Assembly: GCA_039802205.1 (NCBI GenBank)
Contig: JBDRWD010000001.1
Location: 13,658 to 77,657 of the forward strand
DNA length: 64,000 bases
Direction: 5' to 3'
From: a candidate division WOR-3 bacterium
GTDB taxonomy: Bacteria > Hydrothermota > Tepidihabitantia > SM23-42 > JAOAFX01
Shown here: positions 6,021 to 12,170 of the stretch, piece after piece
Position numbering within the stretch: the stretch's first letter is position 1
Layout of the letters: every line of letters begins with the position of its first letter
Notes under the pieces: generated by a model
Told to the model about the DNA's origin: nothing
Databases searched by the model: none
The model's input: only the letters and a program-made list of their open reading frames with translations
Program-made: the position numbers and the translations under genes

Positions 6021-9002
6021 TTGTTCAATATAATTAAGTATATGTTCGCTAAAATACTGACTAAAATTTTTGGCACCAAAACGGAACGCGAATTAAAACG
6101 ACTATGGCCTATTGTCGAAAAAATCAATTCCATCTATCCCAAACTTCAAGGAGTGGATTTAGTCAAAACTACTGAGGATTTTAAAAAAAGAATCGCCCAG
6201 GGCGAATCCCTTGATGACCTTTTGCCTGAAGCCTTTGCTCTGGTTAAAGAGGCTTGCCGGAGATTGGTGGGTAAGAAATGGCCGGTGGTGGAGATTGAAA
6301 CCGAATGGAATATGATTCCCTTCGATGTCCAGCTGATAGGCGGGATAGTTCTTCACGAAGGTAAAATTGCGGAGATGAAAACAGGGGAAGGGAAAACTTT
6401 GGTGGCGACGATGCCATTATATCTAAACGCATTGACCGGCCGGGGTGTTCATCTTGTTACGGTCAATGACTACCTGGCAAGGCGGGATAGAGAATGGATG
6501 GGCCCAGTCTATGAATCCTTAGGACTGACCGTCGGTGTTCTCCAGCAGGGGATGGAGACCCAACCGCGGAAAGAAGCGTATAATTGTGATATTACCTACG
6601 GCACAAACAACGAATTCGGTTTTGATTATCTTCGAGACAATATGGTTTGGAACTGGGAAGATAAAGTCCAACGGGGACATTATTATGCTATTGTCGATGA
6701 GGTAGATAGTATTCTGATTGACGAAGCAAGGACTCCATTAATTATTTCAGGTCCAGTAGAGAGAGAAACAAAAAGCTTTGACGAATTAAATCCCATTGTC
6801 CGTAGGCTCTATTCTGCTCAAACCGTGCTAGTAAACCAGATAGTTGAGGAGGCAAAAAAATTGCTCGAAGAAGGAAAAGAAAAAGAAGCAGGAATTAAAT
6901 TACTCCAGGCAAGACGGGGGGCACCAAAAAACAAACAACTTCTGAAATTAGAACAGGAAACTGGAATCAAACGGTTGATAGAAGAAACTGAATTGAATTT
7001 CATAAGAGAAAAAAGTTTTAGCAAAATTGATGAGGAATTATATTTTGTTATCGACGAAAGAATGCACATAGTCGATCTAACCGAAAAAGGCCGACTTTTC
7101 ATTTCACCCAATAACCCAGAAATGTTTGTTTTACCAGATTTGAGCGAAAAGATCGGCAGAATTGAACGGGATGAAAAATTATCGCCCAAGGAGAAATTCA
7201 TTGCTAAAGAAAAGGCTTTTGAAGAGTATGCTAAAAAAAGCGAGATTTTAGCAAATTTACGTGCCCTTTTAAGGGCTTATTCGCTTTTTGAGAAAGATGT
7301 TGAGTATGTTGTTCAGGAGGGAAAGGTAATAATTGTTGATGAGTTTACAGGCAGATTGATGCCAGGAAGGAGATTTTCTGATGGTTTACATCAAGCGCTT
7401 GAAGCAAAAGAAGGGGTGCGCGTTCAAGAAGAAACTCAAACTTTTGCAACAATAACAATACAGAATTATTTCCGGATGTATGAGAAACTGGCAGGGATGA
7501 CCGGGACTGCTGCTACTGAGGCGAATGAATTTTGGGAAATTTATAAACTGGATGTTGTGGAGATACCCACCAAAGAACCGGTACGCCGGATTGATTATGA
7601 AGACATTGTCTATCGTTCCAAAAGGGAAAAATACAATGCAGTCATTGAGGAAATTGTTAAATGGCATAAGGAAAAAAGACCCGTGCTGGTGGGAACTACC
7701 TCGGTAGAAGTTTCAGAGGTGCTTTCTCGACTTTTGCAGCGTAAAGGGATTCCTCACAATGTTTTGAATGCCAAACATCATCAGCGTGAGGCAGTAATTG
7801 TAGCGCAAGCAGGACAACCCGGAGCGGTTACAATTGCCACCAATATGGCAGGTCGAGGTACGGATATCAAACTTGGGCCTGGCGTGGTAAAATGTGATAA
7901 ATGTTGTATAAAATGTCCGGATCAGAATTGTGCTCAGTGTTCTCATGAATTTAAAAAAGAATGCTTTAAAGAAGTTCCTTGTGGACTTTATATCATTGGC
8001 ACCGAACGACATGAATCAAGAAGAATTGACAATCAGCTACGTGGTCGGAGCGGCCGACAAGGTGACCCCGGTTCTTCACGTTTCTTTCTATCTCTTGAAG
8101 ATGATTTAATGCGCATCTTTGGTTCTGATAGGGTTGCAGATATCATGGATCGCTTCGGAGGGGGGGACCAGAAACCACTTACCCATCCATTGGTTACTAA
8201 GGCGATTGCTAATGCCCAAAAAAGAGTAGAAGAAAATCATTTTGAAGTAAGAAAACATCTTCTGGAATATGATGATGTGATGAACCGGCAGCGCGAAATT
8301 ATTTATAAAATGCGCGATGAAATTCTTAAGGGTGAGAATTATGAGGAACTTATTTTTAGAAATTTTGAAACGACAATTGAAAACATTATTCTGAAATATA
8401 CCGATGAAAAAAAAGAATCAGAAGAATGGAATTGGGATGCTTTAATTGGTGAATTCAATCAATTATTTGCTACAAATTTCTTTTTGAGTAAAGACGAGCA
8501 GGCAAAAATAAAACAAACCGAATTATTTGATAGACTTTTGGAAAAAGCAAAAGAGGCGTATTACCAGCGGCGCCAGTACTATGAACCGGTAATGTTTAAG
8601 GAGATGTTGAAATCAATTCTGCTCCTTACCATAGATAATCGCTGGCGCGAACATCTCTATGCACTTGATGCCTTACGCGAAGGGATCAGCTGGCGGAGTT
8701 ATGCTCAAAAAGATCCATTGGTAGAATATAAACAAGAATCATTTAAGATGTTTGATGAACTTTTAAATGAAATCGCTCGCGATGTTTCTGGGATTGTTTT
8801 CCGTGCAACTCCCAAACCGGTAACGCGGAAACCTCTCGTAACTGTTGAGTACAAACCCACTCTTGATAGCGAAAATGATGCAAAGGTTGAAATGATTAAA
8901 CCCCAAACTCAGGTTCGAATGCAAAAAGTAGGAAGGAACGATCCATGTCCATGCGGAAGCGGAAAGAAATATAAAAAATGTTGCGGTAGGAACATTGGAT
9001 GA
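6021..9002 (+). CDS. secA: preprotein translocase ATPase SecA. A second Met at 6042 ([11 protein letters not shown]) may be the true start.
   Basis: Canonical SecA N-terminus ([14 protein letters not shown]), DEAD-like motor motifs ([60 protein letters not shown]) and a C-terminal Zn finger ([14 protein letters not shown]). Confidence 0.92.
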
Positions 9003-10102
9003 AACCCTATCAAGTAAATCTCTTTGCAGAAGAAGAAAAACCAATAATCTTTTTACCATCCGAACCTGTATTTGTTTATAACAATAAAAAATATTTAAAT
9101 TTTTCTTTAGCAGATTGTTTTAATCGCCGTAATAATGAATACTTAATCGAAAATGCAAAACTTAATTTTAACAATCGAAATATTGTAGACATTCGAGATC
9201 CTGACGGTTATCTTGATGCCTTGAAAAAGGTGATGATTGATTTTAAAAAACTGGATTCAATATGTATTTTTTCTGATGAAATATCGGCAGTTTATGCAAT
9301 CAGCTCAATTTTTAGTTCAAAAGTTACATTTTTTCTTGATGCCGAAACTTCTCCTCAGCTGAATGCGCTTCTCAAATATCGAAATGTAGAGTATTATAAC
9401 CATAAAGATATGGAGAGTTTTGCTAAACTTTTAGCTGTACATTCGGAAAAAGTGGTGATCATAGACGGTCTTTATGAATGGTTAGGTTATGCTGCTCCTG
9501 TTAGTGATATTTTGAAGGTTGCCAAGGAAAATCAGGCTACGGTGATTGCTAACGAAATAAATTCTTTTGGTCTTCTTGGGCGGGATGGTCGGGGCATAAT
9601 GGACCTTTATAATCTTTATGATGAAGTAAATATCGAGCTTGGTAGCTTCAGTCGGCATCTAGGAGGTTATGGCGCATATATCGGAGCTAAAAAATATTTG
9701 ATTAACAAAATAATTGAACATACAAACGACATGTTCATGCCAGTTCCGAAATTTATGCTCGCAGTGAATATCGCAAGTATTGAGATGTTAAAAAATGAAT
9801 CCAAAAACCGGAACGATTTTTCCAGGATGTGGGCAAATAGCCGGTTTTTCATAAACCGTTTGAAACAGATTGGTTTAAGGACACTTAGCGAAACTCCGGT
9901 GGTGGTCCTTATTTTAAACAATAACCAAGAAGCAGAATTATTGAGGCAACGACTCTTTGCCGACGGGATAATTGCCAGTGTCAATAGAGAAAGATTACGG
10001 TTTATCCTTTCCATTGAGCATTCAAAATCGGATCTTGAATATACCCTTGATAGGATTGAGGCTCATTTTAAAGATATGGCAATCATCTATCCTAATACCT
10101 AA
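8999..10102 (+). CDS. alpha-oxoamine synthase (BioF/KBL class-II aminotransferase)-like protein with a degenerate PLP site; probable pseudoenzyme
   Basis: The ATGA start/stop overlaps the secA stop, which indicates translational coupling. The fold motifs align to the AOS family (…YLNFS…, …GLLGRDGRG…, …[16 protein letters not shown]…). The PLP-stacking His is Asn (ANEIN) and the Schiff-base Lys is Arg (SFSRHLG). Confidence 0.5.
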
Positions 10103-10154: not shown

Positions 10155-12170
10155 ATGGTTACAATATTAACTATTTGGGTTATTAGTTTTCTGCCGCAGG
10201 AATATATTAATTTGGTAATGAGAGAAGAATATGAAGCGGCAGAAGAATATTGCAAAAAGATGATGGAAAAAAGCTCTGATTTTAAGTGGTATTTAGAATT
10301 AGGAGACCTTTATTTTGACAAACTTGACGAACCAATAAAAGCCAAACAGGTCTATCAAAATATTATTGACAAATATCCCCAGAAAGACGGGTGGGTATAT
10401 TATCGATTGGGTTTGGTATTGGAGACCCTTGAAGATTATCTAAATGCAGCCCGTACCTATGAAATAGTAGCGACTCGTTATCGGAATCCACCCCTTGATT
10501 CATTTGCGCTTTCCGGTGTAGAACGTTGCTTTAAAAAGAATTATCAGGATACCGTGGCAGTCGTTGATGGCTACCGGATTACGCGTCTGGAACTTGATGA
10601 AAGAATGGCAAAACAATCGCCTTTTGCCAAAAAAGATGAAAAAGGGACGCTTGACCAGATGATACTGGAACGTCTTCTTTATGTTCAAGCAATCAAGAAT
10701 AATGTAAAAGCAACTAAGGAATACAAAAACGCGCTAAAACAAACAAGGGTCAGTGCCCTGCTTGACGAAGTGAGAGCGATAAATGTATTAGCCAAAGCGA
10801 TTCCTACGGAAAAAGAAATGCGTAATTATTACAAGAAGAATAAACATTTTTATAAACTCTCCAAAGAAGTAAGAGGAAAAGAAATTGTTGTAGAATCCGA
10901 AAGTCTTGCCGTTCTTATTCGAGATTCGCTTTTGAAGGACCAACAAAGTTTTGACACCCTCGCAAAACTTTATTCAACTGCACCCACCAAAGGGGGGGGA
11001 GGCGAGATGGGTATTGTGATTCCGGGAACCAAACCTAAAGAGGTGGAAGATGTGCTGTTTAGTATTAAATTAAATACCATCTCGGATATAGTTAAGTTCG
11101 AGAATAAATTCGGGATCTATTTGGTATACGAACGCAAACCCGAGAGGTGGCGTGCTTATGATGAGGTAAAAACCCAGGTGGAAGCCGCGGTGCGGGCGGA
11201 AAAAATCCAAAAACAAGAAGAAAAATTTTTAAAAGATCTTAAGGCCAAAGCAAAGATTGAAATATTCAAAGATAGTATTATCACCGATTCCACCCAGAAA
11301 TCATCTACGAGAATTGTTGCACTGGTTAACAATCGGCCTATCAAATTCCAAGATGTGGAAACCAAAAACTCCTCACAACCAATGTTTGCCCGGCTTGATA
11401 TCTCCCAACCAGAGGAGTTTGAAAAAGTTTTGGAGTCATTGATTGAAGAGGAACTGAAATTGGAACTTGCCGAGCGGAATAAGTACTATCTTAACGATGG
11501 TTTTATCACCAAATACCAGGAGGGTATGAAACGCGCTTTGGAACAAGCGCTTTATACCAAGATGGTTATCGAAAATGCTAAAGTTGATTCTCAGGAGGTG
11601 GCAGATTATTATCAACAACATAAAGAAGAGATGAAAATACTTGAGACGATAAGGTGTAAAGAGATTGTCGTCCACAAAAAAGAAGAAGCTGAAAGGATTC
11701 GCAGTGAACTTGCAAAATACTACGGAGAAAAGAAATCATTTATTCCATTTCTAAGTAAGAGAGCAAAAATTAAAGATTTCACCATGTTTGATTCTTTGGC
11801 TAAAACTTACTCTACCGCCTACAATAAGTCCCGAGGCGGGGATACCGGTCCCTTAAAGCGAGGCTCAAGACCTAAGGAGTTTGAAGAAGTTGCATGGAAA
11901 TTAAAAATTGGAGAGCTGAGCAAGGTATTTTTAGTAGGTGATTCAAACTGGACAATTCTCACCAAAATTGAACATAACCCAGCTCGTTATCGGACATTCG
12001 AAGAGGTAAAAGCCTCGATTGAAATGAATCTATTGCGCGAAAAACAGCGTAAGATTGCTGACGATTATCTTGCTAAAATCAAGAATGAAGCGGATATCAA
12101 GATTATGCTGCCCGAACCGGTACCCGAAGAAGCGAAACCCGAAAATACCGAAACACAACCTAAAGAATAA
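10155..12170 (+). CDS. periplasmic PpiC/parvulin-type peptidyl-prolyl isomerase with two parvulin domains and an N-terminal TPR-like region (SurA/PpiD-like chaperone)
   Basis: Two rotamase-like segments (…GGGGEMGIVIPGTKPKEVEDVLFSIKLNTISDIVKFENKFGIYLV… and …RGGDTGPLKRGSRPKEFEEVAWKLKIGELSKVFLVGDSNWTILTKIE…). Hydrophobic N-terminus. Strong RBS (AAAGGAGG). Confidence 0.6.
   Translation: MVTILTIWVISFLPQEYINLVMREEYEAAEEYCKKMMEKSSDFKWYLELGDLYFDKLDEPIKAKQVYQNIIDKYPQKDGWVYYRLGLVLETLEDYLNAARTYEIVATRYRNPPLDSFALSGVERCFKKNYQDTVAVVDGYRITRLELDERMAKQSPFAKKDEKGTLDQMILERLLYVQAIKNNVKATKEYKNALKQTRVSALLDEVRAINVLAKAIPTEKEMRNYYKKNKHFYKLSKEVRGKEIVVESESLAVLIRDSLLKDQQSFDTLAKLYSTAPTKGGGGEMGIVIPGTKPKEVEDVLFSIKLNTISDIVKFENKFGIYLVYERKPERWRAYDEVKTQVEAAVRAEKIQKQEEKFLKDLKAKAKIEIFKDSIITDSTQKSSTRIVALVNNRPIKFQDVETKNSSQPMFARLDISQPEEFEKVLESLIEEELKLELAERNKYYLNDGFITKYQEGMKRALEQALYTKMVIENAKVDSQEVADYYQQHKEEMKILETIRCKEIVVHKKEEAERIRSELAKYYGEKKSFIPFLSKRAKIKDFTMFDSLAKTYSTAYNKSRGGDTGPLKRGSRPKEFEEVAWKLKIGELSKVFLVGDSNWTILTKIEHNPARYRTFEEVKASIEMNLLREKQRKIADDYLAKIKNEADIKIMLPEPVPEEAKPENTETQPKE

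Follow-up and report, generated by a model that had tools for sequence, protein, structure and literature searches.

An eight-cysteine insert at the variable-subdomain position of SecA from a candidate division WOR-3 bacterium, one form of a widespread, apparently undescribed insert family

Introduction

SecA is an intensively studied machine, and between helicase motifs V and VI of its second nucleotide-binding domain (NBD2) the SecAs known from model organisms lack an insert altogether or have a Cys-free one that is helical. The insert of E. coli SecA, the variable subdomain (VAR), is helical in the crystal structure and forms a cap at the nucleotide cleft. It reportedly comprises residues 519-547 and affects ATPase activity and ADP release; its deletion is said to be tolerated, to confer azide resistance and to speed up ADP release. 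Here we describe another occupant of this position, in the SecA encoded by a stretch of 64,000 nucleotides from a candidate division WOR-3 bacterium (GTDB lineage Bacteria; Hydrothermota; Tepidihabitantia; SM23-42; JAOAFX01; assembly GCA_039802205.1, contig JBDRWD010000001.1, positions 13,658 to 77,657 of the forward strand), referred to below as the window. It is a segment of 31 residues with eight Cys, noticed in a first-pass annotation that a model made from the sequence alone. The comparisons reported here indicate that the segment, with its two putative sites, represents a family of Cys-clamped inserts that is widespread at the VAR position of SecA and apparently undescribed.

Several described modules invite comparison. 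Zn is the default metal for Cys4 sites of the kind considered here. Versions of one and the same element that alternate, depending on the lineage, between Cys4-Zn and a metal-free form are known from the LID of adenylate kinase and from the C+/C- ribosomal proteins. The Cys-rich domain of DnaJ contains eight Cys and two Zn centres, reportedly nested, with one Zn bound by repeats 1 and 4 and the second by repeats 2 and 3. SecA itself has a small Cys-based metal site, the C-terminal SEC-C motif (PF02810); this metal-binding domain (MBD) of E. coli SecA binds Zn in vitro and Fe in vivo (10.1101/613315). Among functional precedents for a Zn staple with a structural role, the best is the CM subdomain of GspE/EpsE and PilB, in which a tetracysteine Zn motif, CXXC-X29-CXXC, is inserted in the domain of a secretion ATPase. 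EpsE needs the CM zinc site for ATPase activity; the Cys are essential and the loop residues interchangeable (PMC5061722). The CM subdomain is present in some paralogues and absent from others.

Position of the insert in NBD2

The insert and the flanking elements of NBD2 have the following positions in the window.

7578..8159, plus strand: NBD2 (IRA2), the RecA-like domain that hosts the insert (PF21090 P-loop_SecA, E = 4.4e-84)
7851..7868, plus strand: helicase motif V, GRGTDI, 8 residues upstream of Cys1 and invariant in 106 relatives
7884-7985, plus strand: the wider Cys-rich peptide of 34 residues (residues 615-648), in the SecA reading frame
7890..7982, plus strand: the insert proper, K617-C647, 31 amino acids (aa); its equivalent in B. 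subtilis SecA is ELG
7893, 7902, 7905, 7914, 7929, 7938, 7962 and 7980, plus strand: the eight Cys codons, in the SecA frame
7893..7904, plus strand: Cys1-x2-Cys2 (C618, C621), N-terminal half of a putative outer Cys4 site, kept in the four-Cys relatives P0169/P0212 and across numerous further lineages
7905..7940, plus strand: Cys3-x2-Cys4-x4-Cys5-x2-Cys6 (C622, C625, C630, C633), putative inner Cys4 site
7944..7946, plus strand: His635, two residues past Cys6, conserved in WOR-3
7962..7982, plus strand: Cys7-x5-Cys8 (C641, C647, with P646), C-terminal half of the putative outer site, abutting the GLYII strand
7998..8066, plus strand: helicase motif VI region, 23 residues, 5 residues downstream of Cys8

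Aligned by phmmer with SecAs of solved structure, the insert is found in NBD2 between helicase motif V and motif VI. The PF21090 profile aligns over its full length, leaving the Cys segment as an unmatched insertion within the domain. The segment is aligned with the Cys-free VAR stretch of E. coli SecA (6s0k, 2fsf) and with the three-residue ELG loop of B. subtilis SecA (1tf2). The first-pass annotation had placed a peptide with eight Cys and one His between GRGTDI and motif VI, at the variable-subdomain position, and both the peptide and its placement were confirmed. Its statement that other SecAs carry a longer Cys-free insert here, or none, holds for E. coli as regards the absence of Cys but not as regards length, since GRGTDI and GTERH are 43 residues apart in the window SecA versus 44 in E. 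coli SecA. The window insert thus shares with VAR the insertion point and a near-equal length, and like VAR it is present in some lineages and absent from others. It differs in that VAR has no Cys and the window insert eight, in the lack of sequence similarity (the phmmer alignment gave scattered identities only), and in its predicted structure, mostly coil in a low-confidence AlphaFold model as opposed to the helices of VAR.

Eight Cys in the 34-residue peptide compare with a Cys content of 0.63 % in the remaining SecA, and the binomial probability of at least eight Cys within 34 residues is 3.9e-11. The other two frames of the plus strand contain several stop codons in this region, and only the SecA frame is open; a compensated frameshift, which the first-pass annotation had named as a possible source of the Cys-rich reading, is therefore excluded and the insert is genuine. 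No other copy of the C..CC..C motif occurs in the six-frame translation of the window.

AlphaFold2 prediction of the full-length SecA together with 106 relatives yielded a confident core, and the insert had a predicted local distance difference test (pLDDT) score of 46-51; it was drawn, at this low score, as coil with two three-residue turns and one seven-residue helix. Prediction of NBD2 alone with 15 relatives was poorer (mean pLDDT 55). The structure model called for in the first-pass annotation was therefore obtained for the SecA core, with no usable model of the insert. Three versions of the isolated insert had no Pfam match at E <= 10, and phmmer against PDB sequences returned only insignificant matches, to disulfide-rich proteins (E = 0.8-3.3).

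Conservation among the closest SecAs

The 120 closest SecAs, 64-100 % identical to the window SecA and chosen without regard to Cys, carry, where named, the names WOR-3, TA06 or simply 'bacterium'. All eight Cys are present in register in 91 of them, down to an overall identity of about 65 %; one has seven Cys (P0156), 28 have four or five, and none has fewer than four. The consensus of the eight-Cys forms is GVV.C..CC[ILV].C....C..C.H..K.EC....PCGLYII. An alignment of 106 of these SecAs shows no variation at C641, P646 and C647 and hardly any at C621 and C633. The single open frame, together with the retention of eight Cys in 91 of 120 sequences, indicates that the insert is real and under selection.

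Three lineages with four Cys (P0169/P0212, P0147/P0174 and P0200) lie inside the eight-Cys WOR-3 clade, and their nearest neighbours are eight-Cys forms with 83-87 % identity outside the insert. P0169 and P0212 can be aligned residue by residue with the eight-Cys form, Cys3 to Cys6 being replaced by S, Y, R and Y. In all three lineages Cys3-6 are gone together and the outer four Cys are kept. Judged from these alignments, the inner four Cys were lost as a block more than once within WOR-3.

Cys counts and pairing of the sites

Metagenome contigs were scanned with a pattern that fixed only the flanks of the insert (a 12-residue stretch that includes Cys8, and GTERH), which gave 117 unique inserts collected independently of their remaining Cys. 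The Cys counts are quantised: four Cys in 83 inserts and eight in 19, besides five in seven inserts, six in five and one in three; none has two, three or seven. Cys7 is found in 113 of the 117, and Cys8 was fixed by the search pattern. The four-Cys inserts fall into three classes, {C1, C2, C7, C8}, {C1, C-x3-C, C7, C8} and {C2, one mid-loop Cys, C7, C8}. The full Cys3-6 set occurs only in inserts that also carry Cys1, 2, 7 and 8, and inserts with the inner, the first or the last four Cys only are absent from the 117. Generic Cys4 sites are expected to come in multiples of four, as is the case in the 83 four-Cys and 19 eight-Cys inserts, with seven five-Cys and five six-Cys inserts as exceptions, and to keep their Cys while the intervening residues vary, as is likewise observed.

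A nested pair of Cys4 sites is favoured because Cys3-6 are lost as a block and the outer four Cys are kept. Two other pairings of eight Cys, cross-braced {1, 2, 5, 6} + {3, 4, 7, 8} and sequential {1-4} + {5-8}, each predict a co-loss that was seen in no natural variant, and both were rejected. The proposal in the first-pass annotation of an internal metal site is strengthened by the invariance of the Cys in variable loops, by the counts of four or eight and by the joint behaviour of Cys3-6.

The five six-Cys inserts (within the metagenome loci L121-L240), for example KCEECCLFSDNNNCNVDINQCYRDPPCG, have only two of the inner Cys left. Such inserts are not accommodated by two separate Cys4 sites and may form a bridged cluster of the Zn2Cys6 type, a hint that the arrangement in some lineages could be binuclear and thiolate-bridged.

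Spread beyond WOR-3

An exhaustive search with a 61-residue query against 1.84 billion cluster representatives found short inserts with eight Cys, long inserts with eight Cys, many inserts with four Cys, and Cys-free inserts of the same length. A homology search with the short segment returned only fragments of fewer than 150 aa, which showed four-Cys forms. In addition, a degenerate DNA pattern for the short eight-Cys form had matches in at least 120 genomes that represent species; because the Cys were part of the pattern, finding them in its matches is circular. The carriers belong to six or more named phyla, among them WOR-3/Stahlbacteria, Eisenbacteria, Latescibacterota, Krumholzibacteriota, Muiribacteriota and Thermodesulfobacteriota. 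They come largely from sediment and other subsurface metagenomes. Among the matches listed, 79 of 80 titles are labelled as metagenome-assembled genomes (MAGs) and none of the 80 names a cultured species. The 80 titles among the matches listed, out of at least 120 genomes with the eight-Cys DNA pattern, are distributed as follows.

WOR-3: 13 of 80 titles
Ca. Stahlbacteria: 6 of 80 titles
Ca. Eisenbacteria: 8 of 80 titles
Latescibacterota: 4 of 80 titles
Krumholzibacteriota: 6 of 80 titles
Thermodesulfobacteriota, 'Deltaproteobacteria' or 'Proteobacteria': 10 of 80 titles
Muiribacteriota: 1 of 80 titles
UBP1: 1 of 80 titles
'Patescibacteria group': 1 of 80 titles
Unclassified: 30 of 80 titles

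In the 118 inserts recovered with the eight-Cys pattern only the Cys are constant; the spacing between Cys4 and Cys5 ranges from 3 to 8 residues and that between Cys6 and Cys7 from 6 to 13. The position of His635 is occupied by P, E or S-N in Eisenbacteria, Krumholzibacteriota, Thermodesulfobacteriota and others. Since the His is confined to WOR-3, it is unlikely to be a general ligand, and the His that had been counted with the eight Cys in the first-pass annotation was rejected in that role. The one insert from a 'Patescibacteria group bacterium' (L015, DATKWS010000105.1), KCERCCILCETPDECGLCPNSRKRTECERDVPCG, is of the Krumholzibacteriota type (cf. L016, L034, L119); its contig may be mis-binned or the MAG mislabelled.

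The long eight-Cys inserts found among the cluster representatives have 74-95 residues and occur in SecAs of 1200-1400 aa. Their layout is Cys1, about 24 residues, CC..C, x7, C..C, about 20 residues and C-x5-C. This form is present in 112 of 113 homologues of one representative (P0270), which, where named, are labelled Phycisphaerae, Planctomycetota or Planctomycetaceae. A cluster look-up assigned one type of four-Cys insert to Ca. Mcinerneyibacteriota.

At the other end of the range are inserts of 43-44 aa that have lost nearly all Cys, such as KLGEGVVHLERSLVESDKALEDICDGKKLRTLLEERPCGLHVI; they were found in four cluster representatives (P0257, P0261, P0272, P0278) and in three metagenome inserts. 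They keep GVV and [PS][CS]GL, look amphipathic or helical and may be intermediates between the Cys-clamped and the helical, VAR-type inserts. Two further representatives (P0253, P0266) have 139-145 residues at the VAR site, resembling a whole small alpha/beta domain that is followed by a four-Cys segment (PECAINTKNPRPGVTCPMDPKKCIEEGVPCG), from which it follows that the site tolerates much larger additions.

The alignments with other SecAs thus confirmed the insertion point and extended the distribution to several phyla. They also change the picture drawn from the window, since the choice between a Cys-free insert and none is incomplete (many SecAs carry four-Cys or eight-Cys inserts there), and what looked like the peculiarity of one protein is one form of a widespread family whose commonest unbiased form is a single Cys4 clamp. 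Occurrence throughout a clade in which the segment is already annotated had been named in the first-pass annotation as a refuting outcome; the segment is indeed widespread, and no description of it was found in Pfam, NCBIfam or PDB sequences. Full-text searches of the searchable literature likewise revealed no Cys-rich insert in SecA, in keeping with the first-pass impression, so that the family is apparently undescribed. The source annotations of the carriers read 'preprotein translocase subunit SecA' in nearly all cases and 'SEC-C (metal-binding) domain-containing protein' in a few.

A proposed metal-folded substitute for VAR

We infer that the Cys bind metal, and the best explanation, which we hold to be probable, if not by much, is that the insert is a compact substitute for VAR, folded by two nested Cys4 sites that most likely contain structural Zn(II). 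The outer site (Cys1, Cys2, Cys7, Cys8) would join the ends of the loop where the chain leaves after motif V and re-enters before motif VI, and the inner site (Cys3-Cys6), a pair of knuckles of the form CxxC-x4-CxxC, would fold the tip. Together with the C-terminal SEC-C site this would amount to three metal ions per SecA monomer. Folded in this way, the loop would form a small, rigid cap next to the nucleotide cleft, where VAR is located in E. coli, and would adjust ATPase activity as well as the release of ADP; by its position the module would take the role of VAR, with metal instead of helix packing supplying the fold. A prediction of coil with turns rather than of a helical hairpin is a weak point in favour of this proposal, given its low pLDDT.

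The SEC-C motif, C-x-C-x8-C-[CH], lies on a flexible tail, whereas the insert has a different spacing, is located inside the motor and gives no match to PF02810. The CM subdomain is a single site in a hexameric AAA+-like ATPase of an unrelated superfamily; the insert, a nested pair with outer ligands of the form CxxC...C-x5-C in the superfamily 2 (SF2) DEAD-like NBD2 of SecA, shows no sequence similarity to it and is no more than an analogue. The co-loss pattern suggests a nested topology as in DnaJ, to which the six-Cys variants fit poorly. However, the DnaJ domain has about 70 residues with four CxxCxGxG repeats and a conserved Gly after each CxxC, while the insert has 31 residues without G-x-G, adjacent Cys2 and Cys3, C-x5-C as the last pair, and no match to PF00684 or another Pfam family. 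The alternation known from the adenylate kinase LID and the C+/C- ribosomal proteins has a parallel in the Cys-free inserts of equal length in SecA (P0257, P0261, P0272, P0278), but adenylate kinase and the ribosomal proteins are different proteins, none of which has a second, nested site.

Several points weigh against nested structural Zn sites. Metal binding is deduced from sequence comparison, and both AlphaFold runs left the insert at a pLDDT of about 45-50. The six Cys in five of the 117 unbiased inserts would be better explained by a bridged binuclear cluster than by isolated Cys4 sites, and one close relative, P0156, has seven. Repeated loss of the inner site suggests that it is dispensable and its importance perhaps small. 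The functional likeness to VAR is an analogy of position alone. Finally, the sediment and subsurface habitats from which most carriers come harbour many anaerobes, which makes Fe as plausible as Zn, and the E. coli SecA MBD binds iron in vivo (10.1101/613315).

Iron is the basis of a competing explanation that is possible at a low probability, namely that the eight Cys hold one or more iron-sulfur clusters or rubredoxin-like Fe(Cys)4 and, as a sensor of redox state or oxygen, switch the SecA motor. Iron-sulfur domains are inserted in the motor domains of some SF1/SF2 helicases, and the motor of SecA is of the SF2 type. Conserved iron-sulfur clusters are reported for many helicases, as is the binding of iron by SecA-like MBDs in E. 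coli in vivo (10.1101/613315). The provenance of the carriers from sediment and subsurface lineages would suit iron, and C-x2-C-C-x2-C-P of the window insert loosely resembles ferredoxin motifs. The actual spacing, however, is C-x2-C-C-x2-C-x4-C-x2-C and not C-x2-C-x2-C-x3-C-P as in ferredoxins, the Pro after Cys4 is replaced by L, S, I, E or K elsewhere, and neither Fer4 nor another Pfam family matches the insert at E <= 10. Moreover, 31 mostly charged residues are insufficient to bury two cubane clusters, and the commonest unbiased form, a single Cys4 clamp of widely variable spacing, is what structural Zn sites typically look like. The Cys may nevertheless form a mononuclear Fe(Cys)4 centre.

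Equally tentative is the idea that the metals are purely structural and that the stapled loop serves mainly to dock a lineage-specific partner, such as the ribosome, a chaperone, anionic lipid or a loop of SecYEG. Lys, Glu and Asp abound in the loops between the Cys, and these loops change rapidly in evolution, which would suit an exposed surface; the Thermodesulfobacteriota forms have Lys-rich loops, for example KKGKKMT; and the C-terminal MBD of SecA is described as a binding module for SecB and ribosomes (10.1101/613315). Against docking, a conserved partner interface should include conserved residues other than Cys, yet those shared across phyla are limited to GVV, the PCGL anchor and a single hydrophobic residue that follows Cys3. 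The genes beside secA in the window include no evident candidate for a partner, and a location between motifs V and VI speaks rather for an influence on the ATPase.

It is rather doubtful that the module is a regulatory thiolate switch instead of an inert staple. Were this the case, Sec-dependent export would proceed at a rate coupled to cellular redox or metal status in several phyla known here mainly from MAGs, among others WOR-3, Eisenbacteria, Latescibacterota, Krumholzibacteriota, Thermodesulfobacteriota and Phycisphaerae.

Very improbable is a loop knotted without metal by four disulfides, or by two in the four-Cys forms, even though even numbers of Cys dominate among the unbiased inserts, Cys-rich knots of similar size occur in secreted proteins, and the sole, insignificant PDB sequence matches mentioned above are disulfide-rich proteins. 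SecA is cytoplasmic, and a reducing cytoplasm is expected in carriers from sediment and the subsurface; disulfides would make two and six Cys as acceptable as four and eight, whereas these numbers were seen in none and in five of the 117 inserts; and the CxxC pair is a classic form of metal knuckle. That the segment arose as an artefact of sequencing or assembly (a compensated frameshift), or by neutral expansion of low-complexity sequence, for which the unusual composition and nothing else speaks, has next to no probability and is refuted by the stop codons in the other same-strand frames, by the recurrence of the pattern in hundreds of assemblies that were made independently, in separate studies and from several phyla, and by Cys columns that are invariant amid neighbouring columns saturated with change.

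The secA gene and its neighbours

Two further features belong to the gene that contains the insert.

6042..9002, plus strand: secA, 986 aa from the ATG at 6042; the mechanical open reading frame (ORF) starts at a TTG at 6021
8934..8990, plus strand: C-terminal SEC-C metal-binding motif, 19 residues (PF02810, E = 3.3e-10), a separate, known site

A 986-aa NCBI protein of a candidate division WOR-3 MAG is 100 % identical to the window SecA and supports the start at ATG 6042. Besides P-loop_SecA (4.4e-84) and SEC-C (3.3e-10), the protein matches the Pfam families SecA_DEAD (1.2e-125), SecA_PP_bind (9e-26) and SecA_SW (1.6e-63), and PDB SecAs match it down to E = 3e-241. It passes the SecA equivalog cut-offs (TIGR00963, 1053.6 vs 800; NF009538, 1099.6 vs 814) and scores under the cut-off of every SecA2 model of NCBIfam; it is a member of the housekeeping SecAs and not a SecA2. 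The best-scoring NCBIfam model is that of the long PRK12901-type SecA, with a score under its cut-off. No second secA is found in the window. The C-terminal Zn finger coexists with the insert, as the first-pass annotation had said, and its motif matches the PDB peptides of the SecA MBD (1sx0, 1ozb, 1tm6).

The protein deviates from well-studied SecAs at two more sites. An insertion of 13 residues in NBD1 (SecA residues 78-90, window 6273-6311, plus strand) faces a gap in B. subtilis and E. coli SecA, and its residues W80, V82 and W89 are invariant among 106 relatives. About 100 residues more than in B. subtilis SecA lie between NBD1 and the PPXD (residues ~282-404, window ~6885-7253, plus strand) and account for the length of 986 aa; this stretch is charged and predicted to be mostly helical, and the alignment to B. 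subtilis SecA is interrupted over query residues 288-412.

The ATG of the following ORF (367 aa, window 8999-10102, plus strand) overlaps the secA stop codon (ATGA). Its product matches no Pfam family at E <= 1e-5 and has no credible match at E <= 1. On visual inspection the product looks like a degenerate version of the alpha-oxoamine-synthase or class-II aminotransferase fold, in which R replaces the Lys that binds pyridoxal phosphate and a 15-residue stretch stands at the position of DEAHS.G..G..GRG of these enzymes; it may be a pseudo-enzyme whose translation is coupled to that of secA. The second gene downstream of secA (window 10155-12170, also on the plus strand) encodes a PpiC/SurA-type peptidyl-prolyl isomerase of 671 aa. 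This isomerase has two Rotamase stretches and a SurA_N-like region and may be a PpiD-like periplasmic chaperone with a functional link to the Sec translocon.

Implications for SecA

The insert is a lineage-specific occupant of the VAR site, built from ordinary Cys4-type chemistry, and places a conserved, probably metal-binding module a few residues from two ATP-sensing helicase motifs. Its most likely role is structural, and an alternation between forms with and without Zn is familiar from other housekeeping proteins. If it is purely structural, it would be another case of a Zn staple that replaces packing, of help to annotation and structure prediction and in itself unsurprising. If the nested Zn sites are real, SecA in at least seven named phylum-level groups, Planctomycetota included, would bind three metal ions and not one. 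If the Cys are redox- or metal-labile, there would be a direct link between protein export and the redox or metal state of the cell. SecAs without an insert, with a helical VAR, with a one-site clamp and with a two-site clamp form a natural series with which the part played by the VAR position in the ATPase cycle can be probed.

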